DNA of 64,000 bases from an uncultured Bacillota bacterium (GCA_963804645.1 CAWDRG010000011.1:32001-96000), one strand, 5' to 3'. Positions 1 to 63,181 are shown, counted from the first letter of the stretch. Numbers and translations: made by a program. Notes: a model not told the origin generated them from the sequence alone.

Positions 1-1
1 G

Positions 2-1008: not shown

Positions 1009-1035
1009 ATTCGCGCCGCACGCGGAAAATCCTGC
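1009..1035 (-). promoter_or_regulatory. Sigma-H-like promoter GCAGGA-N17-GAAT
   Basis: Same elements and spacing as the Bacillus sigma-H consensus, about 50 nt upstream of ATG 958; the motif recurs across the window. Confidence 0.6.
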
Positions 1036-1077
1036 GTCGCCGGAGAGCGCGCCGGGGCACAGGACGTCGAACCGGCG

Positions 1078-2025
1078 TTACGAGACCTTGCGGGGGTCGA
1101 GCGCGTCCCGGAGTCCGTCGCCCACGTAGTTAATGGACAGCACCGCGAGGCAGATCATCAGCCCGGGGAACAACGCCATGTGGGGCGCGAGGTCGAGGTA
1201 GTTCTGCGCGTCGTACAGGAGGCGTCCCCACGACGGGATATCCGGCGGAAAGCCGAGTCCGAGAAACGACAGCGTCGCCTCCGCGATCATCGCGGTGCCG
1301 ACCGAGAGCGTCGCCGACACGATCACCGGGCTCAGCGTGTTTGGCAGGATGTGGCGGAAGATCTGCGAGACCGGGCCGACCCCGAGGCTGCGCGCCGCCT
1401 CCATGAACTCCCGCTCCTTCACCGCCAAGAATCCGGCCCGCACCAGCCGCGCGGTGGGCATCCAGTTGAGGCCGCCGAGCACGACGACGATCAGCCAAAA
1501 GATGCCGAGCTGCGGCCCGAACATCTTCGCCAGCCCGTCCCGGTACAAGTAGAGGACGAGCAGCAACAGCGGAAGGCTTGGCAGCGAGATGAACACGTCC
1601 GTGAGCCGCATCAGGACGTGATCCGTCGTCCGGCCGAAAAACCCCGCGATGGCGCCCACGAGCGTGCCCAGCGTCATCGAGACCAGCATCGCGGCGAAGC
1701 CCACCGCGATCGAGATGCGCCCGCCGTACAGGCAGCGGGCCAGCATGTCCTGGCCGAGGTCGTTCGTGCCAAACGGGTGCGCCCACGACGGGGTCAGCCG
1801 CGCGTTATGGAAGTCGATCGCGCCGATCGGCACATGGTAGATGATCGGGCCGATGATGGTCGCGGCGGTGAGAAACAGGAACATCGCGCCGCCGGCCATC
1901 GCGAGCCGGTGCTTCCGAAACCGCCGCCACGCGTCGCCCCACAGGGTGCGCGGCGGACGGCGGGACGCGCGCACCGCCGCCGGCAGCGCGGGCTGGCCGA
2001 CCGCGTCCGGGCGCACGCTAACCAT
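1078..2025 (-). CDS. Peptide ABC transporter permease (OppC/DppC family)
   Basis: WRRFRKHRLA N-terminus, HPFGTNDLGQD, EAA loop EFMEAARSLG, RHILPN, C-terminal GDGLRDALDP. Confidence 0.95.
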   Translation of the reverse strand: MVSVRPDAVGQPALPAAVRASRRPPRTLWGDAWRRFRKHRLAMAGGAMFLFLTAATIIGPIIYHVPIGAIDFHNARLTPSWAHPFGTNDLGQDMLARCLYGGRISIAVGFAAMLVSMTLGTLVGAIAGFFGRTTDHVLMRLTDVFISLPSLPLLLLVLYLYRDGLAKMFGPQLGIFWLIVVVLGGLNWMPTARLVRAGFLAVKEREFMEAARSLGVGPVSQIFRHILPNTLSPVIVSATLSVGTAMIAEATLSFLGLGFPPDIPSWGRLLYDAQNYLDLAPHMALFPGLMICLAVLSINYVGDGLRDALDPRKVS

Positions 2026-2963
2026 AGCGAATCCTCGGGTCGAGCAGCCCGTACAGCACGTCGGCGATGATGTTGAACACCACGACGAGGATCGCGTAGA
2101 CGAACGTGATGCACATTACGACCGGCGTGTCGCTGTTCTGGATCGCGGTGATCAACAGCGACCCGATCCCGGGAACGCGGAAGATCTGCTCCGTGATCAC
2201 CGCGCCCGTGAACACCGCGGGCAGCCCGAGCGCCAGCAGGGTCACCACGGGGATCAGCCCGTTCCGGAGCACGTGGCGCACGATCACCTTCCCGGAGCGC
2301 AGGCCCTTCGCGAGCGCGGTGCGCACGTAGTCCTGCTGCACGTTATCCAGCATCGACGACCGGACAAAGCGCATCAGCGTGGCGGACGTGAACAGGGCGA
2401 GCACCACCACGGGCATCACCGACTGCTTGAGGATCTGCACCGGATCGGTCACGGTCGTGTTGTAGATGAACGGCAGCCAGTGCAGCTTCACGCTGAACAC
2501 GATGATGAACAGGATCCCGGTGAAGAACGTTGGGAGCGAGAACCCGATGAACGCCAGCGTAGTGGCGACCTGATCGAAGATGGAGTACTGCTTCACGGCG
2601 GACAGGACGCCGATCGGGATCGCGAACAGCACCGCGATCACGTACGACGAGCCGACGACCGCCAGGTCCGTCGGCAGCCGCTGGCCGATCAGCTGGTCGG
2701 CCGGCACGTGACTCTGGAACGAATACCCCCAGTTACCCTCGACGAACGACGTCGCCCACTTGAACGTACCGCACGTAGACCGGATCGTCCAGGCCCAACT
2801 GGTGGCGGATGTTCATCCGCACTTCGGGCGGGATATCGGGGTTCGCGGCGAACCCCGCGAGCGGATCCCCGGGCGCGAGCGCGAGAATCGCGAACACCAC
2901 CATGCTGATCAGCACCAGCGTGGGGATCGCATGGAGCAGCCGCCGCCCGATGAAGTGCGTCAT
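2018..2963 (-). pseudogene. Peptide ABC permease (OppB/DppB family) split by a 1-nt insertion near 2763 (pseudogene or sequencing error)
   Basis: ORF 2733-2963 encodes the N-terminus (RRLLHAIPTL...PGDP...LGLDDP). Removing one base at TAC-GTTC-AAG-TGG restores KWATSFVEGNWGYSFQ into ORF 2018-2707 (DYVRTALAKGL, RHVLRN, YGLLDPRI). Confidence 0.85.
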
Positions 2964-2997
2964 CCCGACGCCACGCGCCCTCTCGTCGTGTCCGCCG

Positions 2998-4800
2998 CTA
3001 GCCCTTGCGCGTCCAGTCCGCGATGTTCCACGTCTCGTCGTCGAAGGCGGTCATGTTGCCCCCGGTGTCGAGCGTGTTCGCCCGCGCGGAGACGCTCTTC
3101 CGGTCGATCAGCGGGACGCTCGCGATCTGGTCGATCACGCGGTCGTTCATCTTGACCCACAGGTCGTGGCCCTTGGTCGGGTCGAGCTCGGACTGGACCT
3201 GATCGTACAGGTCGTTGTAGGTCTTATCCACCCAGCGGGTGCACGCGATCCCCGACCAGTCGTTGGACTTCTGCGGAATGTCCTGGGCCGTGTCGCCGGT
3301 GTAGAACCGCGCCATATAGCCGATCGGGAACGGCGAGCCGAACGTCGTGGTGAACATCTCGACGTCGGTATAGAAGTGCGCCCACGTGTCGTTGTTGCCG
3401 GGCCCGCTGCTGAAGAAGACGCCGGCGTCGACCGACTTGAGGGTCGTCGCGACGCCGACCTTGTCCCAGCCGGCCTTGACGATCTCCTGCTCCTTCTGCC
3501 GCAGGCTGTTGATGCTCGTCTGGAACACCACCGCGAGGCGCACCCCGCCCTTCTGCCGGACGCCGTCCGGGCCGCGCTGCCACCCCGCCTCGTCCAGGAT
3601 CTTGTTCGCCTGGTCGGGGTCGTAGACGATCTTCGTGTTCTTCGAGGCCAGCGTCGTGGGCGTCGTCAGCGTGTTCGCGGTGGCGACCCCCTCCTGCCCG
3701 TACAGCTGATCGGCCATCGTCTGCCGGTCGATCGCGAGCGCCAGCGCCTGCCGGACCTTCGCATCGGTGAGGAACGGATGCGGGGCCTTTACCGACGACC
3801 GCTCCCCGTCCACGGTCTTGTTTGGGTCGGTAAAGTTGAAGTAGATCTGCTCGACGCCGCCCCCAGCGCCGATCAGCAGCTGGCCCTTCCCGCCCTTGGC
3901 GATGTTCTGCAGCACCGGCCACTCGACCTGAAGGTTCCACGCGTAGTCGTACTCGCCGGTCTCAAACACGGCGCGCGCGGCGGAGGTCGCGTCCCCCCCG
4001 CCCTTCATCTGGACCTGATCGAACGCCGGCTTGTTGGGATCACGGTAGTACGGGTTGATCTTGTAGACCACGAGGTCGCCGGGCCGGAAGCTGTCCACGG
4101 TATACGGCCCCGTGCCGAACGAGAGCAGATTGAACGGCGCGCTGCGGGCGTTGCTGCCGATGTACGGGTCGAGCGCGTGCCGGGGCAGGATCATCCCGTT
4201 CTCGCCGACGAACGGCTGGTACCAGCCCGGGGTCGGCGCCTTGAACGTGATCTTCACGGTCAGCGGATCGAGCGGTTCCACCTTCGCGACGCTCACGTAG
4301 CTGCCGTACGTCGTGGCGCCGGTCAGCTTGTTCGCCACGAACTGATAGGTGAACACGACGTCGTCGGACGTAAACGCGCGCCCGTCCGCCCACTTGATGT
4401 TCGGCTTGAGCTTGTAGACCACGGATTTGCCGTCCGCTGCCACCTGGCCGTTGGCCCGGGACGGCACGTTCGCCGCGAGCACGGGGGTGAAGTTCCCGGC
4501 GGAATCCGCCGACATCAGCGCTTCGTTGACGATGTGCGCCGCGTGGTAGTCCTTGGTGCCCTGCGCGAGGTGCGGGTTCAGGATCGTGGGCGCCTGCCAA
4601 TAGAGCAGCTTGAGGGTGCCGCTCCCGCCGCGCTTGCCCGGCGCCGCGGCCCGCGCGACGCCCGGGGCGGCCGCGGACAGCACCGATCCAATGCCGGCCG
4701 CCGAGAGCCCGAGCACGGCCAACTTGCCGATCGCCTCACGACGGGTGATCCCGCCGGTCCGGAGGTCACGCACGATCCTGCGAAACGCGTCCCGCTTCAT
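2998..4800 (-). CDS. Peptide ABC substrate-binding protein (family 5), Tat signal, paralog 2
   Basis: TRREAI twin-arginine signal; KWADGRAFTSDDVVFTY, GTGPY, KVRQALALAIDR. Confidence 0.93.
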   Translation of the reverse strand: MKRDAFRRIVRDLRTGGITRREAIGKLAVLGLSAAGIGSVLSAAAPGVARAAAPGKRGGSGTLKLLYWQAPTILNPHLAQGTKDYHAAHIVNEALMSADSAGNFTPVLAANVPSRANGQVAADGKSVVYKLKPNIKWADGRAFTSDDVVFTYQFVANKLTGATTYGSYVSVAKVEPLDPLTVKITFKAPTPGWYQPFVGENGMILPRHALDPYIGSNARSAPFNLLSFGTGPYTVDSFRPGDLVVYKINPYYRDPNKPAFDQVQMKGGGDATSAARAVFETGEYDYAWNLQVEWPVLQNIAKGGKGQLLIGAGGGVEQIYFNFTDPNKTVDGERSSVKAPHPFLTDAKVRQALALAIDRQTMADQLYGQEGVATANTLTTPTTLASKNTKIVYDPDQANKILDEAGWQRGPDGVRQKGGVRLAVVFQTSINSLRQKEQEIVKAGWDKVGVATTLKSVDAGVFFSSGPGNNDTWAHFYTDVEMFTTTFGSPFPIGYMARFYTGDTAQDIPQKSNDWSGIACTRWVDKTYNDLYDQVQSELDPTKGHDLWVKMNDRVIDQIASVPLIDRKSVSARANTLDTGGNMTAFDDETWNIADWTRKG

Positions 4801-4843
4801 CGGTGTCCCCCTTCATAATCAGCCTACGGCATCTGCCTCCCTG

Positions 4844-4900
4844 CGCTCACACGCGAACCGCGGCGGCATCGTGCGGCACGCCGCGGTCCGCGTGTGAGCG
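4844..4900 (-). terminator. 22-bp stem-loop between the two binding-protein genes (terminator or mRNA-stabilising)
   Basis: Arms 4844-4865 and 4879-4900 are complementary except one position that is a G-U pair on the transcribed minus strand; begins right after stop 4902. Confidence 0.6.
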
Positions 4901-4901
4901 G

Positions 4902-6704
4902 TTACGACTTCCGCGTCCAGTCCGCGATGTTGCGGGTCTCCGAGTCAAACGGGGACATGTTCTGCCCCACATCCAGGCTGTTCACGTGGCCCGACACGAT
5001 CGTGCGGTCGATGATCGGCAGCGACACCGCCTGGTCGATGACCCGATCGTTCATCTTGATCCAGAGGTCGCGGTTCTTGTTGGGGTCCAGCTCGACGAGC
5101 GCCTGATCGTACCAGTCGTTGTACTGCTTGTCGATCCAGCGGCAGTTGTCGATCCCGGCCCAGTTGTTCACCTTCTGCGCCACCTGCTGGGACGGGTCCT
5201 TCGCGTACCACTGCGCCATGTACGACGCCGGGAACGGCGAGCCGAATGTGTCGGTGTACATCTGCACGTCGGTGTAAAAGTGGCCGACCGTGTCGTTGTT
5301 GCCCGGAGAGCTGCTGAAGAACACGCCCGCGTCGACCGACTTCAGGGTCGTCGAGACCCCGAGCTGGGCCCAGCCCTGCTTGATGATCTCCTGCTCCTTC
5401 TGCCGCAGGCTGTTCACGCTCGTCTGGAACAGCATCTGGAGCTTCACGCCGCCCTTCTGGCGAATGCCGTCCGGCCCGCGGGTATATCCGGCCTCGTCGA
5501 GGAGCTGATTGGCCATTGCGAGGTCGTACGCCATCTTCGTGTTCTTCGACGCGAGGCTGGTCGGCGTCGTCAGCACGTTCGCGGTCGCGTTGCCCTCCTG
5601 GCCATACAGCTGCTGGGCGATCGTCTGGCGGTCGAGCGCCAGCCCCAGCGCCTGCCGGACCTTGAGGTCCGTCAGGAACGGGTGCGGCGCCTTGAGCGAC
5701 GACCGCTCGCCGTCCACCGTCTTGTTCGGGTCGGTCTGGTTCGTGTAGATCTGCTCCACCCCGCCGCCCGCGCCGACCAGCAGCTGGCCCTTGCCCTCGG
5801 CCACCATCTGCTGCAGCACCGGCCACTCGACCTGCAGGTTCCACGCGTAGTCGTACTCCAGGGTCTCGAACACCGCGCGGGCCGCCGATGTGGGATCGCC
5901 GCCGCCCTTCAACTGCACCCCGCTGAACGCGGGCTTGTTGGGATCCCGGTAGTTGGGGTTGATCGTGTACACCACCTGGTCGCCCGGCCGGAAGCTGTCC
6001 ACCATGAACGGCCCGGTCCCGAACGACTTGAGGTTGAACGGCGCGTTCCGCGCGTTGCTGCCGATGTACGCGTCGAGGGCGTGGCGCGGCAAGATCATGC
6101 CCTGGGCGCCCACGAACGGCAGATACCAGGCCGGCGTTGCCGCCACGAACGTCACCTTGACCGTGAGCGGATCGAGCGGCTCGACCTTCGCGACGTTGAC
6201 GTAACTGCCGTAGGTGTTCGCCGCGGTCTGCTTGTTGTGCACGAACTGGAACGTGAACACGACATCGTCGGCGGTAAACGGCCGGCCGTCGGCCCACTTG
6301 ATGCCCGGCTTCAATTTATAAATGACCGTCTTGCCGTCCTTCCCGACCTGCCCGTTGGCCATGGACGGTACGTTGGCCGCAAGCACCGGCGTAAAGGTCC
6401 CGGCCCCGTCCAAGGTCATGAGCGGCTCGAGGACGACGCGCGAGGCGTGAAAGTCCTTCACACCGTCGGCGAGATGCGGGTTCAGGATGGTCGGCGCCTG
6501 CCAGTACAGCAGCTTCAGCGTCCCCTGCGAGCCGCGCGTCACCGCGCCGGCGGCCCGGGCCGCGCGCGGCGCGGCCGCCGAGAAGAACGCCGCGATCCCG
6601 GTCGCCGAGATGCCGAGCGCCGCGAGGCGCGTGATCGCCTGACGGCGGTTCAGCCGCCCCGTCCGAAGGTCTCGAAGCAATACCTCGAGTTGGTGATTGT
6701 TCAT
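4902..6704 (-). CDS. Peptide ABC substrate-binding protein (family 5), Tat signal, paralog 1
   Basis: NRRQAI signal; same length (600 aa) and long identical blocks shared with 2998-4800. Confidence 0.93.
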   Translation of the reverse strand: MNNHQLEVLLRDLRTGRLNRRQAITRLAALGISATGIAAFFSAAAPRAARAAGAVTRGSQGTLKLLYWQAPTILNPHLADGVKDFHASRVVLEPLMTLDGAGTFTPVLAANVPSMANGQVGKDGKTVIYKLKPGIKWADGRPFTADDVVFTFQFVHNKQTAANTYGSYVNVAKVEPLDPLTVKVTFVAATPAWYLPFVGAQGMILPRHALDAYIGSNARNAPFNLKSFGTGPFMVDSFRPGDQVVYTINPNYRDPNKPAFSGVQLKGGGDPTSAARAVFETLEYDYAWNLQVEWPVLQQMVAEGKGQLLVGAGGGVEQIYTNQTDPNKTVDGERSSLKAPHPFLTDLKVRQALGLALDRQTIAQQLYGQEGNATANVLTTPTSLASKNTKMAYDLAMANQLLDEAGYTRGPDGIRQKGGVKLQMLFQTSVNSLRQKEQEIIKQGWAQLGVSTTLKSVDAGVFFSSSPGNNDTVGHFYTDVQMYTDTFGSPFPASYMAQWYAKDPSQQVAQKVNNWAGIDNCRWIDKQYNDWYDQALVELDPNKNRDLWIKMNDRVIDQAVSLPIIDRTIVSGHVNSLDVGQNMSPFDSETRNIADWTRKS

Positions 6705-6814
6705 TAAGCGCCCCCTCCCCTACGTGTGATGTTCGGTCCGTGCGGGCCGCCGACTGCGGCCCGGGTGACGTCGGGGTCACCTCATGGGTTCTGTACGTGC
6801 GCAATTGGGTGGGG

Positions 6815-6841
6815 GTTCGCGGTGTTGCTACGAACTCCTCC
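6815..6841 (-). promoter_or_regulatory. Sigma-H-like promoter GGAGGA-N17-GAAC for the peptide ABC operon
   Basis: Motif oriented toward ATG 6704, about 110 nt upstream. Confidence 0.45.
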
Positions 6842-7046
6842 GCCCCCGGCGCGGTTCGGCGGCCCCACCGGCACCCCGTGCGCCGCCGGGGATCCCGCGA
6901 ACGAGGGCAATCCCGCCGCCCGCCCGCGCACGAACCACAGGATATTGGACCCCCACCCGGCGCCGAAGGTCTCGATCGCGTCCCCGGCCAACACACCGGT
7001 GAGCGTGGGCCGGCGGGCGTCGCGGCCCGACACGGGAGGGAGCCGG

Positions 7047-8030
7047 ATGCTGCTGGCGGGAGACATCGGAGGCACCAAGACGGCGCTCGGCGTCTTCTCG
7101 CCCGAGGCAGGCCCCCGCGCCCCGCTGGCCGAGGCGACGTTCCGCAGCGGCGACTACGAGAGCCTGGAGGCGATCGTGCAGGAGTTCCGCCGGCAGCTCG
7201 CCCATCCGATCGACCGGGCGAGCTTCGGCGTCGCGGGTCCGGTCGTCGGGGGCACGGCCAAGATCACGAACCTGCCGTGGACGATCGACGAGACGCACCT
7301 TCGGCAGCTGCTCGGCCTGCAGCGGGTGCGGGTCGTCAACGACCTCGTGGCGATCGCAAGCGCCGTGCCCGACCTGGACGCGTCCGACCTGCACACCCTC
7401 AACACCGGGCGCGCGGTTCCCGAGGGCGCGATCGCGGTCGTCGCGCCCGGCACCGGCCTCGGCGAAGCGTTTCTCACCGCGAACGGCGGACACTACCAGG
7501 CGCACCCCTCGGAGGGCGGCCACGGCGACTTCGCGCCGCGTGGCGCGACCCAGTGGGGCCTGCTCGAGTCGCTCGCGCGGGACGGGTCGCACGTCAGCTA
7601 CGAGCGGGTCTGCTCGGGCATCGGGATTCCGCGCCTGTACGCGCACCTCAAAGCGGCCGGGACCGCACCGGAGCCCGCGTGGCTGACCGGGCAGCTCGCC
7701 GCGGCGGCCGATCCCACCCCCGTGATCCTCCGGGCGGCGACCGAGCACGTGCCGCCGGCGGAGTTGGCGGTGGCCACGCTCGCGCTGTTCGTGTCGATCC
7801 TGGCGGCCGAGGCCGGGAACCTCGCCCTCAAGGTCCTGGCGACGGGCGGCGTCTACCTCGGGGGCGGCATTCCGCCGCGGATCCTGCCCGCGCTCGACGC
7901 GGGCGGGTTCATGGCGGCGTTCCGCGACAAAGGCCGGTTGTCGGCCCTGCTCGACGCGATCCCGGTGCACGTGATCACGCGTCCCGACGTCGCGCTCACA
8001 GGCGCGGCGCGCGTGGGGCTGGACCTGTAG
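7047..8030 (+). CDS. glk: Glucokinase (Glk group A)
   Basis: LAGDIGGTKT, GVAGPV, ITNLPW, VVND, APGTGLGEA, SEGGH, GGVYLGGGI; GGGAGGG RBS before ATG 7047. Confidence 0.95.
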   Translation: MLLAGDIGGTKTALGVFSPEAGPRAPLAEATFRSGDYESLEAIVQEFRRQLAHPIDRASFGVAGPVVGGTAKITNLPWTIDETHLRQLLGLQRVRVVNDLVAIASAVPDLDASDLHTLNTGRAVPEGAIAVVAPGTGLGEAFLTANGGHYQAHPSEGGHGDFAPRGATQWGLLESLARDGSHVSYERVCSGIGIPRLYAHLKAAGTAPEPAWLTGQLAAAADPTPVILRAATEHVPPAELAVATLALFVSILAAEAGNLALKVLATGGVYLGGGIPPRILPALDAGGFMAAFRDKGRLSALLDAIPVHVITRPDVALTGAARVGLDL

Positions 8031-8122
8031 CGCGGAGCCCCGAAGGCAAGCAGGGGCCGCCGCGCGCGAGGCCAAATCAGTGTGGTGCGACCTCGCGCCA
8101 CCAACCACCGGAGGTGAGTCCG

Positions 8123-9070
8123 ATTAACTACCGCCAGCTTGGACGTTCGGGACTTCGCGTGTCCGTCTACGGGCTTGGATGCAACTCGTTCGGCGGCCGC
8201 GCCGACGAAGCCACCTCGGCGGCCATCATTCATCACGCCCTCGACCACGGCGTCAACCTGCTCGACACCGCCAACACCTACACGGAAACGCGGTCCGAGT
8301 CGATCATCGGCCGGGCCCTCAAGGATCGGCGCGGGGACGCGCTCATCGCCACCAAGTGCGCGGGCAAGGTCGGCGACGGCCCCAACGACCGCGGCACGTC
8401 TCGGTGGCACATCATGCGCGAGGTCGAGCGCAGCCTCGGGCGGCTCCAGACGGATCACATCGACCTGTACCAGATGCACACCTTCGACCCGCACACGCCG
8501 ATGGACGAGACGCTGCGCGCCCTGGACGACCTCGTGAGCCAGGGCAAGGTCCGCTACATCGGATGTTCCAACTTCACCGCCTGGCAAGTGTGCAAGGCCC
8601 TCTGGACGAGCGACCGGCACCACTTCGTCCGCTACGACTCGGTCCAGCCGGCGTACTCCCCGGCCGACCGCCGGATCGAGCCGGAACTCGTCCCGCTGTG
8701 CCTCGACCAAGGGGTCGGGCTCGTCGTGTACTTCCCGCTCGCGGGCGGCGTCCTGACCGGCAAGTACAAGCCCGGCGCCGAGCCGCCGCAGGGCTCGCGG
8801 GCGCTGACCCAGCCGCAGTTTCGCGAGCGCATGAACGAACGCAATCTGGCGCTCTCGGTCGCGATGCAGCAGCTCGCGGCCGAGGCCGGCGTCACGGTCG
8901 CGCAGCTCACGCTCGCGTGGGTGATCGGCCGCCCCGGGATCACGACCGCGCTCGTCGGCGCGACGCGCGTGGCCCAGCAGGAGGAAAACCTCAAGGCGGT
9001 CGACGTGACGCTCGCACCGGACATGGCGACGCGCATCGACGAACTCACCCAGGAGTTTGTGACGTTCTAG
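8123..9070 (+). CDS. Aldo/keto reductase; start probably ATT 8123 (alternative GTG 8114)
   Basis: (I)NYRQLGRSGLRVS, LDTANTY, IATK, SLGRLQTDHIDLYQMH, GKVRYIGCSN, PLAGGVLTGKY. Confidence 0.92.
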   Translation: MNYRQLGRSGLRVSVYGLGCNSFGGRADEATSAAIIHHALDHGVNLLDTANTYTETRSESIIGRALKDRRGDALIATKCAGKVGDGPNDRGTSRWHIMREVERSLGRLQTDHIDLYQMHTFDPHTPMDETLRALDDLVSQGKVRYIGCSNFTAWQVCKALWTSDRHHFVRYDSVQPAYSPADRRIEPELVPLCLDQGVGLVVYFPLAGGVLTGKYKPGAEPPQGSRALTQPQFRERMNERNLALSVAMQQLAAEAGVTVAQLTLAWVIGRPGITTALVGATRVAQQEENLKAVDVTLAPDMATRIDELTQEFVTF

Positions 9071-13703: not shown

Positions 13704-13731
13704 GTTCGCCGCGGACCGCCCCGCACCCTGT
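13704..13731 (-). promoter_or_regulatory. Sigma-H-like promoter ACAGGG-N18-GAAC
   Basis: About 75 nt upstream of ATG 13630, correct orientation. Confidence 0.45.
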
Positions 13732-13785
13732 CCCGGCAGAGGCCCCGGCCGGACGGCCGGAGAAGTGGCCCGGGGAGCCGTACGC

Positions 13786-27139: not shown

Positions 27140-27316
27140 CGGGTGCCGCCTGCCCCTTGCACGCTGGCGTGTACCTTCCGCGACGTCCGCGAATCACGCG
27201 ACTGCTTACACGCGCCGCCGCACCCTTCCTTCTTCCCGCCCGCTGTGCGCGGAGATCGCCGTCATTCGTGCGGAGTCCGCACGTGCCCCGTGGGACCGCG
27301 CGGTGGGAGAAGCGAA

Positions 27317-42650: not shown

Positions 42651-42678
42651 CTTCGGAGGTATTCCTCCGACGCCCTGC
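42651..42678 (-). promoter_or_regulatory. Sigma-H-like promoter GCAGGG-N18-GAAG of pdhABC, with palindrome TCGGAGG-N4-CCTCCGA in the spacer
   Basis: About 50 nt upstream of ATG 42600; inverted repeat at 42653-42670. Confidence 0.5.
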
Positions 42679-42701
42679 CGCCCCCTCTCGGACCTGCGAA
42701 A

Positions 42702-42728
42702 CCAGGACCCCGCCCCGCGTGGGCGAAG
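42702..42728 (+). promoter_or_regulatory. Divergent sigma-H-like promoter CCAGGA-N17-GAAG
   Basis: Back-to-back with the pdh promoter and pointing to HAD-zwf, but about 360 nt from the first start. Confidence 0.35.
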
Positions 42729-50505: not shown

Positions 50506-50534
50506 ATTATACCATTCACCATCTTGGGGAGCAA
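50506..50534 (-). promoter_or_regulatory. Sigma70 promoter TTGCTC-N17-TATAAT with extended TG
   Basis: Perfect -10 at 50506-50511, TG at 50513-50514, -35 at 50529-50534. Confidence 0.7.
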
Positions 50535-54957: not shown

Positions 54958-55080
54958 GACGACACCTCCTCGGGGCTGGGACAGCGGAACGGCAACGACA
55001 CCAGATCGGCTCCTTTGGTTTTGGACCCGCACGCGTGATCTCCTGCCGTGATCGGAGAGCGCGCGAGGCATGTGAGATGT

Positions 55081-55446: not shown

Positions 55447-56414
55447 TCGCGATCGATCGAAACGGCGCCTGCAGCGGCGCTTCTACGGCCGCACTAAGCC
55501 GGGGACCCTGCTCAAGCACCACATCGCCATCAAGACCGAGCATTCGGGAGGTTGAGTACGCGCGGCTTCACCGAGATCGACTTGGTCTTCCACTCGGGCA
55601 ATGCCGCCGACGGCGACTTGCCGATCCAGTTCGCTCAATCTCACGGATATCCACACCGGCTGGGTCGAAACGCGGGCCGTCATGGGCAAGGGACAAACGG
55701 CCGTCCGCGCGGCCTTGGAGGAGTTGCGGCAGGCCCTGCCGTTTCCCCTGCGCGGCATCGACTCTGACAATGGCTCCGAGTTTATCAACAATCATCTCGT
55801 GCGCTACTGTGCCGATCGAAGATTCAATTCACCCGCGGCCGCCCCTACAAAAAGGACGACAATGCCCACATTGAACAAAAGAACTACACGCATGTCCGCA
55901 AGCTGATGGGCTGGGAGCGCTACGATTCGCCGCACGCCCGCGCCCGCATGAATGACCTGTATCAGCACGAAGTGCGGCTCATGATGAATCTCTATCAACC
56001 GTCCGTGAAGCTGCTCCGCAAGGAGCGCATCGGGTCCCGGCTCACGCGGCGCTATGATGCCCCCAAGACCCCGCTCGATCGCCTGGCGGCTACGCCGGGC
56101 GTCGACGCGGCCACCATCCGCGCGCTCCACCAGCTCCGTGCCCAACTCGACCCGTTCGCGTTGGCCGCCGCGATCGATCAGAAACTCAGCGTCATTCACC
56201 AGGCTGCCAATCATCGCCTCAGTCCCCGCGATGCCACCATGCCGCCCCCGGCCGTCACACCGTCCGTTCGCGCCACCCATGCTCCTCACCGCTGGGACCA
56301 CAACTGGTTCTTCCCGAAGGCGGTCGCCCAACGTCGCGGCAGCCGCACTCTGGTAAGAACTTAAATGGCGCGATGATACCTTCCCGGGTAAGATTACGCG
56401 TTAATGGCTTGACG
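55447..56414 (+). mobile_element. Decayed IS: 5'-truncated DDE (rve/integrase-core, ISNCY-like) transposase with several frameshifts
   Basis: Pieces in different frames join as TKPGTLLK / GFTEIDLVFH / LNLTDIHTGW...IDSDNGSEFIN / FTRGRPYKKDDNAHIEQKN...RYD...PKTPLDRL; repeated ggtaaga...aatggc at the 3' end. Confidence 0.85.
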
Positions 56415-56614
56415 GGGGGCCGCATCCGGTCACCGACGATTGTGCGGCTGCCGTCCGGAGCCGCGGAGGATGATCGCGAACCTTCGGCACCCTGCGCCCG
56501 CGGCGGACGAGTCTGTCTTCGCATGATGGAGGCGCAACGCCCCACCCCGTAGCGCCATAATCGCGGGATGCGGCACGTCCATCCCCGCACGTCAACTAGC
56601 GAGGGTGTTCGAAC

Positions 56615-58165
56615 CTACTTGTTTACGTGCGATTTAATAGCCGCCTGGATCTTGGCCTTCACGGCGTCGAGGTTGAACGACGCCGGGTCTTGCATCGGCG
56701 GGTAGCTGAGGGCCGTCGCCGCCAACTTGCCGACGACTTGCTGCACGTACACGAACCGCCAGAACTCATGCCCCATGAAGTCCATGAAGTAGGACGGTGA
56801 GGACGTACCGCAGGAGCGCTCGAACGGATCAAGGCGCAGGTTGCAGAGGATCGGGAAATTGGCCTTGTTCTTCGGACCGAACCACCCCTCCGGCTGATCG
56901 ATGAACGTATATTTGACATCATCGACGCGAATGGCGCCGAGTTCCGCCTCGTCGAAGTAGAAGAACTCATGACGGGCCGACGGGCCCTTTCCCGTGAGCA
57001 TCGGCAGTTGATTGTACCCGTCGAGGTGGACCTTGTAGGTCTTGCTGCCGAGCTGCTTGCCTCCGAGCAGCTCTTGCGCGATATTGGCATCGCCGGCCGC
57101 GGCGACGAGCGTAGGAAACCAGTCCAGCGACGCCATGAGGCCGTTCTCCACCTTGCCCGCGGGGATCTTGCCCGGCCACTTGACGATACAGGGCGCGCGG
57201 AACCCGCCCTCGGTGCTCATGCCCTTCTCGCCCTTGAACGGTGTCTGCCCGCCGTCCGGCCAGCTGATGACTTCGGCACCGTTGTCCGTCGTCACGACCA
57301 CGATCGTATTATCCTCGAGCCCCTGGTCCTTGAGATGTTGCAGGACCGCGCCGATGATGTCATCGAACTGCGCCATCCCCGCCTCGTACGTGTACCAGCT
57401 GTTTTGCGGCGTCTGCATCTTGCGGTATTTCTCCGAGAGGTACGTGTACACGTGCATGCGCGTCGTGTTCAACCACGTGAAGAACGGCTTCCCGTCCTTT
57501 TTGGCGCGGTCGATGAAGTTGATCGCGTTCGCCAGGATCTCGTCGTCGACGGTCTCCATGTTGAGCTTGATGCCGGGGGTCGGGTGCGGCGGCAGCGGGC
57601 CGCAGTCCTCGATCTTCTGCTTGCCCACCTTGCCCCACCGGGGATCCACCGTCGGATCGTCAGTGTCGGTGGCCCAGCAGTGCAACACGTTGCGCGGGCC
57701 CACGGTCTTGACCAGCTCCGGCGGATACGAGTGCCAGAACGGGTCCTCCATCGCATCCAGATGGTACAGGTAGCCGTAGAATTCATCGAAGCCGTGGAGC
57801 GTCGGCAGATACTCGTTGCGGTCGCCCAGGTGATTCTTGCCAAACTGGCCGGTCGCGTAGCCCATCGCCCGTAGCGCGGTGGCGATCGTCGGGGCCTGGG
57901 CCGGCATCCCGACCGTCGCCCCAGCCTGCCCCACCGTCGTCAGTCCGGTCCGGAGCGGAATTTCTCCCGTGATAAAGGCCGCCCGTCCGGCGGTACAGCT
58001 GGCCTCCGCATAGTAGTCGGTAAGGAGCGTGCCTTCAGACGCGAGCTTGTCGATATGCGGAGTCCGGCTCGCCATGATGCCGCGATGATAGGCCCCGATG
58101 TTGAACCAGCCGATGTCGTCGCCAAAGATCACCAGAATGTTCGGTTGCTTTGCAGCTGTCGCCAT
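56615..58165 (-). CDS. Cys-type arylsulfatase, no signal peptide
   Basis: PNILVIFGDDIG, SCTAGRAAFITG, GKNHLG, HGFDEF, TDNG, RAP, LDG, DPFE. Confidence 0.94.
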   Translation of the reverse strand: MATAAKQPNILVIFGDDIGWFNIGAYHRGIMASRTPHIDKLASEGTLLTDYYAEASCTAGRAAFITGEIPLRTGLTTVGQAGATVGMPAQAPTIATALRAMGYATGQFGKNHLGDRNEYLPTLHGFDEFYGYLYHLDAMEDPFWHSYPPELVKTVGPRNVLHCWATDTDDPTVDPRWGKVGKQKIEDCGPLPPHPTPGIKLNMETVDDEILANAINFIDRAKKDGKPFFTWLNTTRMHVYTYLSEKYRKMQTPQNSWYTYEAGMAQFDDIIGAVLQHLKDQGLEDNTIVVVTTDNGAEVISWPDGGQTPFKGEKGMSTEGGFRAPCIVKWPGKIPAGKVENGLMASLDWFPTLVAAAGDANIAQELLGGKQLGSKTYKVHLDGYNQLPMLTGKGPSARHEFFYFDEAELGAIRVDDVKYTFIDQPEGWFGPKNKANFPILCNLRLDPFERSCGTSSPSYFMDFMGHEFWRFVYVQQVVGKLAATALSYPPMQDPASFNLDAVKAKIQAAIKSHVNK

Positions 58166-58192
58166 GTGATTCCCCCTTCTTAGAGCCTCAGC

Positions 58193-58816
58193 CTAGTGAA
58201 GCTGGTACTTCGTCAGGACGAGCGCCTTGTTCCGGACGCTGGCCGGCCACGCGGCTTCGGGACCGAACTGGATCTTCACGATGGTCTTGGCCGACGGCGC
58301 GTACCAGGCAAACCCCGTGCCGACCTGATGCTGCACCGGCGGGTTCCCGGCCGGCAGCGTCAGGACCGAGCAGAGCAACTCCACCGCGGAGAACATCCCG
58401 GCCGGCACCGTCACCGACCGCACGGGACCGACCCGCCACACGAAGTGGAACTTGGTACCCCGGTCCGTCCAGCGCTTGTTGGCGGTCAGCGGCCAATCCA
58501 GGAACAGGAAGTTGCCGACCTGCTGGCGCTGGAACATGGCGCCCCACTCCATGTTGGGCCGCACGCCGGCGCCCATGCCGGCGATCGTGTAGGACCCATC
58601 GGTCGCCGCGCTCTGTACGGTCATGGCCACGACGCCGCCCGTGGGGCCCGTCCAGGCCCACGTATCGCCGTGATACCACGTCGGTGGATTCAATGGGAGC
58701 TTCGCCATCGTCATCGGCATCGACTGGGCTGCGTTGAGTTGCAGCGGGAGCAGTCCCACCACGAGCGCAACGGCGATGAGCATCACGACGTTCGACATCC
58801 GACGCATACCGGTCAC
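58193..58816 (-). CDS. Secreted hypothetical beta-sheet protein (VTVPAG.F / WYAP motifs)
   Basis: Signal peptide VVMLIAVALVVGLLPLQLNA; GDTWAW, DWPL, SVTVPAGMF, WYAP..KTIVK; start uncertain. Confidence 0.7.
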   Translation of the reverse strand: MTGMRRMSNVVMLIAVALVVGLLPLQLNAAQSMPMTMAKLPLNPPTWYHGDTWAWTGPTGGVVAMTVQSAATDGSYTIAGMGAGVRPNMEWGAMFQRQQVGNFLFLDWPLTANKRWTDRGTKFHFVWRVGPVRSVTVPAGMFSAVELLCSVLTLPAGNPPVQHQVGTGFAWYAPSAKTIVKIQFGPEAAWPASVRNKALVLTKYQLH

Positions 58817-59145
58817 TATCGATCACCATCCCTCTCCAGAATGTGAGGGTACACGTGCCGTGCCAACCCGCTGATGACTGCTTGATCCACCTCCCTCCAA
58901 AAATGAATCTATCACCCCAACGGGTGTTCGTGGTATGCTTGCCGACCGCTCCTAGCTGTCCCCATTTTCATACTGTGTGGCGCCGCACGCGCGACATGGG
59001 GGACTCCCTTCGGTCGAGGACTCCCCCACGAAACGCCGTCGCTGGCCCGGTCACGTCGATGCGGCACCCAACGCGGCTCGATCGGGGTTCGGTGATGCCG
59101 GCCCGACGGTGTGACGATGTCGGGCGCGGCGGACGCGCGCACGCG

Positions 59146-60471
59146 TCACTGCTGAATCAGCGGCCGCCCGTGACACTGCTTGAACTTCTTGCCGCTCCCG
59201 CAGGGACAGCGGTCGTTGCGCCCGGCCTTGGCGCAGGCCCGCTGCAGGGCGGCGTCCTCCTGGGCCAGGACGCCCATCACGTCCGCGGCCGGCCGGTTCG
59301 CGCGCAGGAGCGACGCGATGATGCGCACGGGATGGTCGATGTGCGTGAAGAAGGCCTTATACCCGGCACAGAGATAGCTCAGGCCCGGCTCACCGTCGGG
59401 CGTCGTGATGAAGCGGCTCTTCGGACAGTCCCCGTGGCACGCAAACCGCACCGGGCACTCCACGCAGTACCGCGGCAGCGTCGTCAGCTTGTTCCGTCCG
59501 AACTGGAGCTGCTTGTCGGACGCGACGAGCTCGAGCATATGGGTGTCTTGGATATTGCCGAGAAGGTAGTCCGGCTCGACGAAGTGGTCGCACGAGTACA
59601 GATCGCCGTTGTGCTCGATCGCCAGCGCCGTGCCGCAGGTGGGCGAGAACACGCACATCGTCGACCCGAGCCCCATCCAGCTCCGCACCGCGCCCTCAAA
59701 CGTCTGCACAAACACCCGGCCGACGTCGTGCCGGACCCACTCGTCGAAGATCGTGATGAGAAACGTGCCGAGCTGCTGGGCGCCGACCGACCGTTCCGTG
59801 ACCGTCGTCCCCTGCTGCAGGAGCGTCCGGCCGTCGCTGTTGATCCGCTCGACCACCGGGATGAACTGCATCCAGTCGGTGCCCGCCTCGTCCCGCAAGA
59901 ACCGGTACACGTCGAGCGGCGCGCTGCCATTGCAGCTGTTCACGGTCGTCAGGATGTTGTACTCGACTTTGTGCTTCTGGAGGAGGCGCAGCCCGCGCAT
60001 CACCCGATCAAACGTGGGATGCCCGCCTTTATCCACGCGGTAGCGATCGTGCAGATGCCGCGGCCCGTCGATGCTGATGCCGACCAGAAAGTGCTCGTCG
60101 CGCAAAAACTCGCACCACGCGTCGTCCAGGAGCGTGCCGTTCGTCTGGATCGTGTTCTCGAACGTCATCCCGGGCCTGGCGTACTTGCGCTCGTACTCGA
60201 TCGCCCGTTGGAAGAACTCGAGCCCCATCAGCGTGGGCTCCCCGCCCTGCCAGGCCACCGTCACTTCCGAGCTTCGGTGCGATTCGATCAGTTGGCGGAT
60301 GTACGTCTCGAGGAGCTCGTCCCCCATGCGAAAGGCGCTCCCGGGGTAGAGCGCCTCCTTGGCGAGGAAGAAGCAGTATTCGCACCCGAGGTTGCAGATC
60401 GCTCCCCGGGGCTTGGCCATGACGTGAAACCGGGGCGGGGCGTGCCGCAGCGTCTGCGCGGTCTGACTCAT
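59146..60471 (-). CDS. Anaerobic sulfatase maturase (radical SAM/SPASM) with C-terminal SEC-C motif
   Basis: CNLGCEYC, WQGGEPTL, QTNG, SIDGP, GDLYSCDH, CVEC...CHGDCPK, YLCAGY; GRNDRCPCGSGKKFKQCHG. Confidence 0.95.
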   Translation of the reverse strand: MSQTAQTLRHAPPRFHVMAKPRGAICNLGCEYCFFLAKEALYPGSAFRMGDELLETYIRQLIESHRSSEVTVAWQGGEPTLMGLEFFQRAIEYERKYARPGMTFENTIQTNGTLLDDAWCEFLRDEHFLVGISIDGPRHLHDRYRVDKGGHPTFDRVMRGLRLLQKHKVEYNILTTVNSCNGSAPLDVYRFLRDEAGTDWMQFIPVVERINSDGRTLLQQGTTVTERSVGAQQLGTFLITIFDEWVRHDVGRVFVQTFEGAVRSWMGLGSTMCVFSPTCGTALAIEHNGDLYSCDHFVEPDYLLGNIQDTHMLELVASDKQLQFGRNKLTTLPRYCVECPVRFACHGDCPKSRFITTPDGEPGLSYLCAGYKAFFTHIDHPVRIIASLLRANRPAADVMGVLAQEDAALQRACAKAGRNDRCPCGSGKKFKQCHGRPLIQQ

Positions 60472-61682: not shown

Positions 61683-63002
61683 CTAGCGGGGCAGGCTGGC
61701 TTGCGGAGGTATCTCGAACACGAGCAGGGCATCGCCGACCGGCCGCTCGTGGCCGTCGGAAGGCGAGTTCACCACCGTCGGCGCCGAGCGCCGCGGAAAC
61801 CGCACCACCATCGTCACCGACCCGCCGCTGTCGAAGGCCATGGCCTGATCGGCCCCGAGCCACTGCAGGTACGAGGCAAGTTCCGGCTGCGTCAGCCCCA
61901 CGCTCCCCCGCTGGCGCCCATCGACCCCGACGAGAAGCATCGTGTGACCGTCGCGCAGGATCCCGACACCGAGCACGGGACGCCGGATGTAGCGTTCATG
62001 CGGGGCGGGCGACCGCGGATCGTCGACCAGGCGCCCGTGCTCCACCAGCAGCGGACCCCCGCCGATCGCCAGGTGCGCCGACCTCCAGTCCGGGGTCGTC
62101 GCCAGATTGAGCAGGGCGTCGGCCCCGGCGATCACGTGGTCGCGGAGCCAGTCGGACGCCCGGCCGCGGCCGACCAGCAGCAGTTCACCCTTGGGAAACG
62201 GCGCGTAGTAGGCTTGACCCGGCCAGACCTGCTTCACGCGGTACGGCACGCCCGCGGGGGGCGACGGCTCGGTCGTCAACGAGAATCCGGAGTCGGCGGA
62301 CGCCGGCTGTGCCTGGTCGCTCGGAGCCAGCTCGACGACGGTCTGGCGCACCCCCGGGTCGGGAGGCGGGGCCCCGTAGCCGCGCACGTTCGAGAGCGCG
62401 GTAATGCCCTCCCGGACGAGCCCGGTGTTGAAGCCCGCGATCCAGTACGACGTGTGGGCGTCGGGCAGCACCAGCGATCCGTCCCAATCGTAGCGCACGA
62501 TCGCCGCGCTCCCGTCCTTCCCCACGGTCAGCGCGGCGCGGCTCGACGGACTCCGCAGCAGCTCGCCGTTCCGCACGACGATGTTCAGCGGCATGCCGGA
62601 GTCGCCGATATCGAAAAAGTCGCCGTTCACCCCGGCCACCGCCTGGGTACGCCCGACCATCGACGAGACCGTCTCGTCGCGACTGATCAGCTGCTCGTGG
62701 GCCAAGCCGAGCCCCAACCGTACGGTCGGGACGTTGAGATCGACGCGGAGCCGGTAGAGTCGGAGCGGACCGGACGACGTGAGCAGACGATACCGGCTGA
62801 GGGTCACGCCAGGGGCGATCGCCGTGGACATCCCGAACGATGCGCTGGCGGTACGCCACCACGGCGACGATGCGGCAGAGCTGGGCACGGCGAGAAGGCC
62901 AGCGAGGAGCCCGGCGCACAACAGGCCGACCAAGTAGCGAGCGCGATCACTGTGTCGATTCACGCGGCGATGATTAGTCCCGGCTCGTCTGCGACGTGGC
63001 AT
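61683..63002 (-). CDS. Secreted phosphodiester glycosidase (NAGPA-like) family protein
   Basis: Signal peptide; VAGVNGDFF, IGGGPLLV, VDGRQ..SVG, FDSGGS, NSPSDGHERPV. True start may be GTG 62963. Confidence 0.85.
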   Translation of the reverse strand: MPRRRRAGTNHRRVNRHSDRARYLVGLLCAGLLAGLLAVPSSAASSPWWRTASASFGMSTAIAPGVTLSRYRLLTSSGPLRLYRLRVDLNVPTVRLGLGLAHEQLISRDETVSSMVGRTQAVAGVNGDFFDIGDSGMPLNIVVRNGELLRSPSSRAALTVGKDGSAAIVRYDWDGSLVLPDAHTSYWIAGFNTGLVREGITALSNVRGYGAPPPDPGVRQTVVELAPSDQAQPASADSGFSLTTEPSPPAGVPYRVKQVWPGQAYYAPFPKGELLLVGRGRASDWLRDHVIAGADALLNLATTPDWRSAHLAIGGGPLLVEHGRLVDDPRSPAPHERYIRRPVLGVGILRDGHTMLLVGVDGRQRGSVGLTQPELASYLQWLGADQAMAFDSGGSVTMVVRFPRRSAPTVVNSPSDGHERPVGDALLVFEIPPQASLPR

Positions 63003-63006
63003 GTCT

Positions 63007-63033
63007 GTTCGAGGCTCGACCGACGGCTCCTGC
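63007..63033 (-). promoter_or_regulatory. Sigma-H-like promoter GCAGGA-N17-GAAC
   Basis: Immediately upstream of the phosphodiester glycosidase gene. Confidence 0.55.
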
Positions 63034-63153
63034 TGCATCCCCTGGAAAGTGGCCGTCTGTGTGCGCCTGGGCCCCTCACTGGAGAAGACGGCGCAGCGCC
63101 GCGTCTGTCTCACCGCCGGTGCGCGCCCCGCCGCATCGGGCGCCGACGCCTCG

Positions 63154-63181
63154 ACAGGGGACGGGCTCCGGACGCGCGAAG
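63154..63181 (+). promoter_or_regulatory. Sigma-H-like promoter ACAGGG-N18-GAAG
   Basis: 38 nt upstream of ATG 63219. Confidence 0.5.

Follow-up and report, generated by a model that had tools for sequence, protein, structure and literature searches.

A recurring bipartite motif resembling sigma-H promoters ahead of unrelated operons in an uncultured high-GC Bacillota bacterium

Why does the same short two-part sequence stand ahead of operons for metabolism, peptide uptake, signalling and secreted proteins in a single stretch of GC-rich DNA, and what would read it? An initial annotation of the 64,000-nt stretch analysed here, hereafter the window, proposed that copies of AGG(A/G) and GAA boxes separated by 17 or 18 nt are promoters of a sigma-H-like factor. 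The 11 strings that it listed were all found at their coordinates and on their strands (11/11). The motif was formalised as the regular expression AGGR-N17/18-GAAB and searched on both strands of the window, bearing in mind that this pattern was defined by eye, post hoc, and fixes only about seven bases.

Over the whole window, AGGR-N17/18-GAAB showed no excess over shuffled sequence (13 matches in total on both strands; six with N17 vs. a shuffled mean of 5.68, and seven with N18 vs. 5.85). Nine of the 13 matches were located in non-coding DNA, which makes up 10.0% of the window and has a GC content (69%) similar to that of the coding DNA. When the 27 intergenic segments (5751 nt) were shuffled 3000 times with their dinucleotides preserved, the count averaged 1.0 and never exceeded 5, so that no shuffle reached the nine observed (0/3000); for the form in which GAA is preceded by C, seven copies were observed vs. 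0.42 expected, and again no intergenic shuffle out of 3000 reached the observed number. One of the nine non-coding matches, at 55822-55846 (-), which the initial annotation had not cited, is a probable chance match, lying antisense within a frameshifted transposase remnant.

The distance between the boxes was analysed by varying the spacer from 5 to 40 nt in the intergenic DNA, revealing five matches at 17 nt and four at 18 nt, whereas the 34 other lengths gave 0-3 apiece. The peak persisted when the pattern was changed to CAGGR-Nk-NAAN (five and five at 17/18 vs. 0-2 elsewhere) or to CAGG-Nk-CGAA (three and three vs. 0-1). A blind scan of trinucleotide dyads ranked AGG-N19-GAA at about the 18th position (7 vs. 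1.5, p ~9e-4), which is not significant across the approximately 65,000 tests performed. A crude EM motif search overfitted.

Of the 27 upstream regions that measure 40 nt or more, seven hold an oriented copy of the motif. Counted from the final base of GAAN, the start codon is 50, 110, 73, 66, 358, 43 and 37 nt away at the seven sites, so the earlier statement that most copies lie 40-110 nt from the start holds for six of them (37-110 nt), whereas one is 358 nt away. A Shine-Dalgarno-like stretch was recognised by eye ahead of the start codon at those same six sites. Two divergent regions (42.6-42.7 kb and 63.0-63.2 kb) hold a pair of copies, and there each member of the pair faces, and is closer to, its own gene; by a hand-worked count, six of eight distinct sites have a start within 150 nt as oriented, vs. 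two of eight if flipped. The observation behind the initial annotation is confirmed: the motif is real, non-random, oriented toward the first genes and near them.

Among the seven sites, the -35 core is AGGA in four and AGGG in three, with C directly before AGG in five and an AT-rich tail at the 1009 site alone (AGGATTTT). The -10 box is CGAA in six and GGAA in one, and its final base is T in two, C in three and G in two.

The site closest to the B. subtilis sigma-H consensus, GCAGGA-N17-GAAT at 1009..1035 (-), which reads AGGATTTT ... GCGAATA, is 50 nt before the ATG (958) of a secreted protein with Cu_amine_oxidN1/AMIN domains (2-958, -; Pfam). The next, GGAGGA-N17-GAAC at 6815..6841 (-), contains an inverted repeat (GTTCG-N11-CGAAC) and lies 110 nt before ATG 6704, the start of the peptide-type solute-binding protein (Pfam) that heads an Opp-like ABC operon (1078-6704, -). 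A signalling protein with PAS-GAF-PP2C(SpoIIE)-HATPase_c_2-STAS domains (10316-13630; Pfam) is preceded by ACAGGG-N18-GAAC at 13704..13731 (-), at 73 nt if translation begins at ATG 13630 or 100 nt if at ATG 13603. In the divergent region near the end of the window, a secreted NAGPA-domain protein (Pfam) that starts at GTG 62963 has GCAGGA-N17-GAAC at 63007..63033 (-), 43 nt upstream; the N-terminus of this protein resembles a signal peptide in a by-eye reading of the translation. On the opposite strand, ACAGGG-N18-GAAG at 63154..63181 (+) is 37 nt upstream of ATG 63219, where a class-III aminotransferase (Pfam) starts.

The four weaker copies of the initial annotation fared unequally. The copy GAAGGAA-N-CGTGTAAG at 27205..27232 (-), 65 nt before the COX2 ATG (27139) of the caa3 oxidase/bc operon, retains both boxes in the related locus L001, but its -10 is TAAG instead of GAAN; the proposed link to respiration comes from this one weak copy with its non-consensus -10 box. 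At 8050..8077 (+), 81 nt before the GTG (8159) of an aldo/keto reductase, GCAGGG-N18-AAAT has a good -35 box and a -10 that reads CAAAT instead of CGAAT. The copy GCAGGA-N18-AAAA at 55019..55046 (-), 61 nt before the gamma-glutamyltranspeptidase ATG (54957), shares the spacer 9-mer CGCGTGCGG with the 1009 site at an identical offset, and has no counterpart ahead of the orthologue in L005. Finally, the copy at 13738..13765 (+) adjoins a start codon and is unconvincing as a promoter.

Related loci were compared at the divergent region between a PDH-type operon and a HAD-G6PD-MFS-glucoamylase operon, where the E1-alpha proteins of the relatives are 73-93% identical to that of the window. On the PDH side, the conserved element is AGAGGGG-N-GGAATACCT, which the initial annotation had not cited, at about 42661..42688 (-) and 66 nt before the E1-alpha ATG (42594). 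Both of its boxes are invariant in L001, L003, L004 and L005, and the alignment of these four loci with the window keeps A.AGGGG and CGG.GGAATA.CT unchanged. The copy cited instead, GCAGGG-N18-GAAG at 42651..42678 (-), overlaps this element with a 10-nt shift and is not conserved in L001 despite 93% identity (AGGG becomes CGGCC, and GAAG becomes GAAA), so that the PDH claim passes from the cited copy to the overlapping one; the cited copy is perhaps a chance match, perhaps an additional start specific to the lineage.

On the other side, the HAD ATG (43087) follows CCAGGACC-N-CGAAGGA at 42702..42728 (+) by 358 nt, vs. 336 nt in L001 and a much shorter 47-49 nt in L003 and L004. CAGGACC is invariant and GAAG is found in every copy (L001, L003, L004 and L005), with spacers that vary in sequence and, by 1 nt, also in length. 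In L003 and L005, G6PD is accompanied by 6PGD. At these two putative promoters both boxes are thus conserved around variable spacers wherever orthologous regions are comparable. No motif was found before the PDH operon of L006, with 73% E1-alpha identity. Beyond the orthologous PDH and HAD sites, the related loci add little independent excess: non-orthologous matches at 17/18 numbered five vs. about 3.7 expected from the other spacings (hand-summed), and additional oriented upstream copies were detected once in L001, twice in L006 and not in L003-L005.

The balance of the evidence tips toward bipartite promoters read by an alternative sigma factor, most likely one of the sigma-H (Spo0H/SigX) family. 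The class would comprise a -35 box (G/A)CAGG(A/G), a spacer of 17-18 nt counted from AGGR and a -10 box CGAA(T/C/G), that is, sigma-H-family boxes adapted to the GC-rich DNA of this uncultured high-GC Bacillota host. With this sigma bound, RNA polymerase would begin its transcripts a few nt beyond the GAAN box, producing 5' leaders of about 30-100 nt. The units driven would include, for metabolism, the 2-oxoacid (PDH-type) dehydrogenase operon, the HAD-G6PD-MFS-glucoamylase operon and the class-III aminotransferase and, for uptake, envelope and signalling, the Opp-like peptide uptake operon, two secreted or envelope proteins and the large PP2C/anti-sigma-kinase-like signalling protein. As no sigma-factor gene of any kind was found among the 49 window proteins (Pfam) or among 29 proteins picked from five related loci, we infer the identity of the sigma factor from the motif alone; that the boxes act as promoter elements, and when the sigma would be active, we infer as well.

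The strongest competitor is an alternative sigma outside the sigma-H family, either an ECF factor or the cognate sigma of the PP2C/RsbW-like kinase/STAS protein (10316-13630), which we regard as possible but doubtful. The promoter-type evidence of placement, spacing and conservation would fit such a factor equally well. The HATPase_c_2 and STAS domains of the 10316-13630 protein are typical of anti-sigma/anti-anti-sigma modules, its gene carries the motif (13704), and partner-switching regulators usually belong to the regulon of their own sigma. Regarding ECF factors, the consensus of actinobacterial SigR/SigH is GGAAT-N18-GTT (GGAAT or GGAAC as -35, with GTT about 18 nt downstream), and the PDH site of the window, also in a high-GC host, matches it literally; moreover, the 6815 site reads GAAC-N17-CGT. 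However, the GTT is missing at that position in all four relatives (L001, L003, L004 and L005), where the upstream AGGGG is retained, meaning that the conserved partner box is upstream and not downstream; the other six sites lack the ECF pattern, and GAAC-N16/17-CGT is present at just one of the three GAAC sites. A promoter of the actinobacterial SigR/SigH type, fitting the PDH site alone in the window, was consequently rejected. The sigma-B motif AGGTTT-N17-GGGTAT, as quoted in an excerpt of PMC6849360, does not match either, and among the consensuses checked none from outside the sigma-H family joins AGGA and CGAA at this spacing.

Instead of a sigma factor, a DNA-binding regulator that globally activates or represses carbon- and nitrogen-scavenging genes could contact the boxes, an explanation that we consider unlikely. 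It would account for the inverted repeat inside the 6815 site, for the spacer 9-mer common to the 1009 and 55019 sites, and for the conserved PDH block CGGnGGAATAyCT, which exceeds the length of a -10 box, so a regulator site may overlap the promoter there. Nevertheless, neither box is a palindrome or a repeat of the other, both are strand-specific relative to the downstream gene (the six of eight vs. two of eight above), the spacer is free in sequence but fixed at 17-18 nt in length, and the geometry is that of a known sigma motif.

Reading of the element by the housekeeping sigma-A, as a GC-adapted form of its promoter, appears quite improbable, even if the motif precedes core metabolic genes (the PDH-type operon and G6PD) whose upstream regions show no evident sigma-70-type box, and even if it outnumbers the clear sigma-70 matches. 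The last point agrees with the initial annotation, as TTGNNN-N17-TANNNT gave only two non-coding matches in the whole window, both away from motif-bearing upstream regions. Scans with the sigma-70 consensus detected three sites in 1-20000 vs. 0.8 expected and three in 40001-60000 vs. 1.3 expected, and in these two intervals no motif-bearing upstream region had a match; hexamers of the type TTGACA-N16-18-TATAAT were accordingly discarded as the basis of the motif sites there. By contrast, a canonical sigma-A-type promoter outside the motif class, TTGCTC-N17-TATAAT at 50506..50534 (-), precedes an MGS-like gene and keeps its -10 box in L001, and two further sigma-A-like sites were recognised by eye, TGTTAGAAT before 17669-18655 and TTGATT-N17-CATATT before cspA. 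AGGR/CGAAB has no letters in common with TTGACA/TATAAT and, given a canonical sigma-A promoter in the same window, the motif would represent a second promoter class.

Chance matches to a very degenerate pattern chosen by eye are highly improbable: the whole-window count equals expectation, about seven bases are fixed, the corrected dyad scan is non-significant and the 55822 'intergenic' match is probably spurious, but no intergenic shuffle reached the observed count, the spacing peak at 17/18 is sharp and, at two of the putative promoters, four other genomes keep both boxes around varying spacers. A dispersed intergenic repeat (REP/MITE-like) was rejected, as none of the repeats listed (the 20 largest direct families and the 25 longest inverted pairs) covers the motif sites, and the spacers of these sites are unrelated in sequence.

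Returning to an alternative sigma, it probably switches on part of the metabolism and nutrient uptake of the host, with its signal before about one-quarter of the operons in the window. In B. subtilis, sigma-H controls a set of this nutrient-scavenging and carbon-metabolism type at the exit from exponential growth. Against the sigma-H assignment, it can be observed that a PDH-type dehydrogenase and G6PD are core metabolism and not classic sigma-H targets. A much wider proposal, in which deep-branching high-GC Bacillota would use a GC-adapted (CAGGR/CGAAB) sigma-H-family factor as a major growth-relevant sigma, directly driving central carbon metabolism and about one-quarter of the transcription units with a reach comparable to sigma-A, is speculative and, in our opinion, rather unlikely. 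The 'unusually broad' regulon of the initial annotation extrapolates from a single 64-kb window in which 7 of 27 upstream regions carry the motif. Nor is the host, an organism sampled only through metagenome assemblies, an exotic high-GC bacterium: the nearest relatives are metagenome-assembled genomes labelled Firmicutes/Bacillota, a phylum in which sigma-H-like factors are described as widespread in the available part of PMC3364868, and a sigma-H-type regulon is therefore less unexpected than first thought. Given this phylum label and the literature, the host is likely to encode a sigma-H-family factor.

If the sigma-H reading is true, a clade of uncultured high-GC Firmicutes in which sigma-70 scans find almost nothing would gain a promoter model that can be put to use. 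The reading would also predict the co-regulation of peptide uptake, glucan use, the oxidative pentose-phosphate branch, the PDH-type complex and secreted proteins, and would illustrate the extent to which a sigma-H-type motif may diverge in GC-rich DNA with its AGG/GAA cores and spacing retained.

Compared with known systems, the likeness to the Bacillus sigma-H consensus noted in the initial annotation stands for the core letters and the spacing. In the excerpt of PMC6849360, the B. subtilis motif is given as AGGAATT (-35)-N14-CGAAT (-10), equivalent to AGGA-N18-GAAT; the AGGA core recurs here in four of the seven sites and the CGAA core in six, and its distance of 18 nt falls within the 17/18 found here. 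Both hosts belong to Bacillota, and the putative targets in the window are rich in transport, envelope and metabolic genes. The Bacillus sigma-H regulon is likewise rich in these classes. The differences are that AGGG is also accepted here (3/7), that the AT-rich -35 tail of the quoted B. subtilis motif is found in 1/7 sites and its final -10 T in 2/7, the rest being C or G, that C precedes AGG in 5/7, and that the putative targets include a PDH-type operon and G6PD. For C. difficile SigH, a transition-phase sigma-H, the title of Saujet et al. 2011 (cited in PMC8237595) names sporulation, metabolism and virulence factors, which offers a precedent for metabolic genes under sigma-H, although that organism is low-GC and this window contains no sporulation genes. 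The available part of PMC3364868 assigns SigX and ComX to the sigma-H family, and the streptococcal CIN-box recognised by SigX is quoted in an excerpt of PMC6224593 as a single 8-mer, TACGAATA. Whereas that regulon is one of competence, no competence genes are among the targets here, and a -35 box is conserved in addition to the -10; the CGAAT(A) core of the quoted CIN-box is nonetheless recognisable in the GCGAATA of the 1009 site and the GGAATA of the PDH site.

The bipartite motif AGGR-N17/18-GAAB, in which AGGR occupies the place of a -35 box and GAAB that of a -10 box, most likely represents, as judged from the DNA sequence, promoters of an alternative sigma from the sigma-H family whose boxes are relaxed toward G and C. 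All 11 strings cited by the initial annotation were found in the window, and a regex search of its whole length gave 13 matches on both strands. This was no excess for the window as a whole (6 vs. 5.68 and 7 vs. 5.85 in shuffles). Nine of the 13 fell in non-coding DNA, which makes up 10.0% of the window with a base composition equal to that of coding DNA; by our own arithmetic, the binomial probability of at least 9/13 at p = 0.10 is about 5e-7. The match at 55822-55846 (-) lies antisense within a frameshifted rve-type transposase remnant and was therefore counted as chance. Among the 20 largest direct repeat families and the 25 longest inverted pairs of the window, no family of dispersed repeats covers the motif sites.

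The distance between the boxes was varied from 5 to 40, an internal control that retains all local composition. Intergenic matches numbered five at N17 and four at N18, compared to 0-3 for any one of the 34 remaining spacings. The peak was robust to box definition, since it was also obtained with CAGGR-Nk-NAAN (5 + 5 at 17/18 vs. 0-2 elsewhere) and CAGG-Nk-CGAA (3 + 3 vs. 0-1), both in intergenic DNA. Coding-DNA matches across spacings showed codon periodicity only, and the outgroup loci (L002, L007-L010, L012 and L013), a weak control with poor gene models (coding fraction 0.57-0.83), gave no clean 17/18 peak.

Upstream regions no shorter than 40 nt numbered 27, and 7 of them had a gene-directed copy. 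Measured from the end of the GAAN box after re-examining start codons, the start lay 50 nt from 1009(-) for a Cu_amine_oxidN1/AMIN protein, 110 nt from 6815(-) for the first Opp-like binding protein, 73 nt from 13704(-) for a PP2C signalling protein, 66 nt from 42661(-) for PDH E1-alpha, 43 nt from 63007(-) for an NAGPA protein, 37 nt from 63156(+) for an aminotransferase and 358 nt from 42704(+) for HAD. In the two divergent regions with two copies, each copy was oriented to, and closer to, its own gene, and by hand count 6/8 sites lay within 150 nt of a start as observed vs. 2/8 if flipped. The observation made in the initial annotation was confirmed; its reading, sigma-H (Spo0H)-like promoters heading many unrelated operons, is supported in part only.

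Two of the sites carry further sequence features. The 6815-6839 site before the Opp-like operon holds an inverted repeat, GTTCG-N11-CGAAC, and reads GGGG-N16-CGAAC on the plus strand toward glucokinase; both directions may be controlled from this region, which would then be shared or bidirectional. The 1009 site has the identical spacer 9-mer CGCGTGCGG in common with the weak copy at 55019 (1014-1022 and 55028-55036, minus strand), in each case at an offset of 5 nt past AGGA; this is a coincidence or an additional element within the spacer.

The window has a GC content of about 70%, and 49 genes were called by a codon-usage model, for which the window itself served as training set, and annotated with Pfam. 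They include an Opp-like peptide ABC operon; glucokinase, aldo/keto reductase, a chlorite-dismutase-like protein and DinB; a 1095-aa PAS-GAF-PP2C(SpoIIE)-HATPase_c_2-STAS protein; two hydantoinase A/B pairs; a bc-complex/caa3 oxidase operon; HtrA and a Liv-type ABC operon; a PDH-type E1-alpha/E1-beta/E2 operon; an HAD-G6PD-MFS-GH15-SDR operon; MGS, RidA, M20, ApbA, GGT and CspA; a sulfatase with a radical-SAM/SPASM partner; and DUF929, an NAGPA-domain protein and a class-III aminotransferase. Relatives were found by searching genome contigs with PDH E1-alpha as query: the closest was L001, from an 'uncultured Firmicutes bacterium' MAG (93% identity), followed by L003, L004 and L006 from 'Bacillota bacterium' MAGs (73-76%) and by L005 (76%), with extensive synteny between the window and L001, L003 and L005. 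Because L001, L003, L004 and L006 carry Firmicutes/Bacillota labels, the host was assigned to the Bacillota as an uncultured, high-GC member; ESM Atlas matches of PDH E1-beta came from mixed phyla and were uninformative for taxonomy.

Several features of the window were recorded in passing. At 1-126, a 63-nt unit occurs twice in tandem (84% identical) in the 3' portion of the gene for the Cu_amine_oxidN1/AMIN protein, giving a 21-residue protein repeat. A frameshift near 2710-2740 divides the OppB-like permease at 2018-2963 (-) into an N-terminal piece (2733-2963, BPD_transp_1_N) and a remainder (2018-2707, BPD_transp_1); either the gene is a pseudogene or the break is an assembly error. The gene at 10316-13630 (-), with the motif in its own upstream region, fuses DUF4118, PAS, GAF, PP2C (SpoIIE type), an RsbW/SpoIIAB-like kinase (HATPase_c_2) and STAS in one 1095-aa chain, a predicted whole partner-switching module in a single polypeptide. 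The first hydantoinase pair lies at 13765-17617; the second, with an S15 X-Pro dipeptidyl-peptidase, forms a block at 33674-39262 (+) that L001 lacks, its Liv binding-protein gene being the immediate neighbour of PDH E2; this is an insertion or deletion between close relatives. The transposase remnant (about 55560-56330, plus strand), whose ORF pieces had no Pfam match and in which GIDSDNGSEF was read off the translation, adjoins a segment of lower GC (56000-60000, 64.5% vs. about 70%) that carries the sulfatase, a radical-SAM/SPASM maturase-like gene and two proteins without family, and that may be an acquired island.

The cross-genome comparison of boxes covers, among the seven sites, the two of the divergent region between the PDH and HAD-G6PD operons. 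On the HAD side, CAGGACC was unchanged in all five aligned sequences (window, L001 and L003-L005) and GAAG occurred in every copy, with the two boxes spaced by 17 (window, L001) or 18 (L003-L005) and no sequence relation between the spacers. On the PDH side, the densest invariant runs in the same alignment were A.AGGGG and CGG.GGAATA.CT, 18 nt apart. Kept boxes around a free spacer of fixed length are the mark of a bipartite promoter. The PDH copy originally proposed, 42651-42678, was not conserved, L001 having CGGCC for AGGG and GAAA for GAAG; the conserved copy is 42661-42686, 10 nt upstream. The motif was absent before PDH in the more distant, non-syntenic L006.

The HAD site and start are separated by a non-coding leader of about 350 nt in the window (42729-43086, plus strand, 358 nt) and L001 (9513-9848, minus strand, 336 nt), and the boxes lie only 47-49 nt from the start in L003 and L004; an Rfam search of 42560-43100 at E<=1 gave no match. 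In the operon behind the HAD-side site, the more distant relatives have 6-phosphogluconate dehydrogenase between HAD and G6PD, as identified by Pfam in L003 (7730-9780, minus strand) and L005 (8217-9632, minus strand) and as predicted from the same 471-aa gene position in L004 (1697-3747, minus strand); the corresponding operon of the window and L001 is HAD-G6PD-MFS-GH15.

Elsewhere, L001 keeps GAAGGAA...CGTGTAAG at the weak COX2 copy (27205), with an off-consensus -10 box, and the weak GGT copy (55019) had no counterpart before the L005 orthologue. Oriented copies were found in 3/11 upstream regions of L001, 2/11 of L003, 2/5 of L004, 2/8 of L005 and 2/10 of L006, a density similar to the 7/27 of the window; one in L001, two in L006 and none in L003-L005 were additional to orthologous sites. 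These copies are too few to amount to an independent enrichment.

Three other box assignments were tried and rejected. An ECF reading, GGAAT-N18-GTT, fits the PDH site of the window, and GTT is missing in 4/4 relatives; another, GAAC-N16/17-CGT, fits only one of three GAAC sites; and for sigma-B (AGGTTT-N17-GGGTAT), the only GGGTAT after a PDH site is that of the window, and its distance does not fit.

The motif might also be read by an alternative sigma factor outside the sigma-H family. No sigma factor gene was found among the 49 window proteins, or among 29 proteins picked from five related loci; by the synteny given in PMC3364868, a sigma-H-family gene would be expected in the vicinity of cysS...rpmG-secE-nusG. 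Alternatively, a DNA-binding regulator could contact the boxes. At PDH, a regulator site that overlaps the motif may account for the wider conservation around GGAATA. Recognition by sigma-A itself is less likely, as canonical sigma-A-type promoters coexist in the window, which argues that the AGGR/CGAAB class is a second promoter type and not the housekeeping form of the host. These are TTGCTC-N17-TATAAT before the MGS gene, with the -10 box kept in L001, and, by our own reading of upstream sequence, TGTTAGAAT before 17669-18655 and TTGATT-N17-CATATT before cspA. Sigma-70 consensus matches were scarce, without clear enrichment (3 vs. 0.8 and 3 vs. 1.3 expected, 40 of 64 kb scanned), and a sigma-70-type regex gave two non-coding matches in the whole window.

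Upstream of the MGS-like gene (50425-50534, minus strand), a strong intrinsic terminator (stem 50458-50433 plus T-run), also conserved in L001, lies about 50 nt past TTGCTC-N17-TATAAT; the arrangement suggests a small RNA or a short leader/attenuator. The sole Rfam match in 50300-50760 at E<=1 scored 16.7 bits, chance level, and no family reached its gathering score in the whole window.

Chance matches are the weakest explanation: the motif was defined after the fact and, in a blind trinucleotide dyad scan of intergenic DNA, AGG...GAA ranked about 18th, not significant after multiple-test correction, but when the 27 intergenic segments (5751 nt) were shuffled 3000 times with dinucleotides preserved, no shuffle reached the nine matches observed (mean 1.0, maximum 5). 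With C required before GAA, seven were observed vs. 0.42 expected, again reached by 0/3000 shuffles. A ZOOPS EM search written for this analysis and applied to the 27 upstream regions was overfitted (gamma about 0.95; best seeds 1009, 55019, 8050 and 63007), and no statistic was drawn from it.

Under the sigma-H-type reading, putative targets would include peptide uptake and a glucan/pentose-phosphate operon, along with a 2-oxoacid dehydrogenase, secreted proteins, an aminotransferase and a signalling protein, a predicted set that resembles a nutrient-limitation regulon. The sigma-H regulon of B. subtilis is of this type. The 2011 paper by Saujet and colleagues on SigH of C. difficile mentions metabolism in its title. 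For sigma-H of B. subtilis, PMC6849360 states the motif AGGAATT(-35)-N14-CGAAT(-10), which can be rewritten as AGGA-N18-GAAT with C preceding GAAT; the window sites have AGGA in 4/7 and AGGG in 3/7, a spacer of 17 or 18 and CGAA in 6/7. SigX, a sigma-H-family factor, recognises TACGAATA according to PMC6224593. This consensus match, together with the coexisting sigma-A-type promoters, is the reason for favouring an alternative, sigma-H-type factor. Promoters of the sigma-H type are well established in Bacillota. The novelty lies in the predicted GC-adapted form and in candidate targets that extend to central metabolism, both in a lineage that is uncultured.
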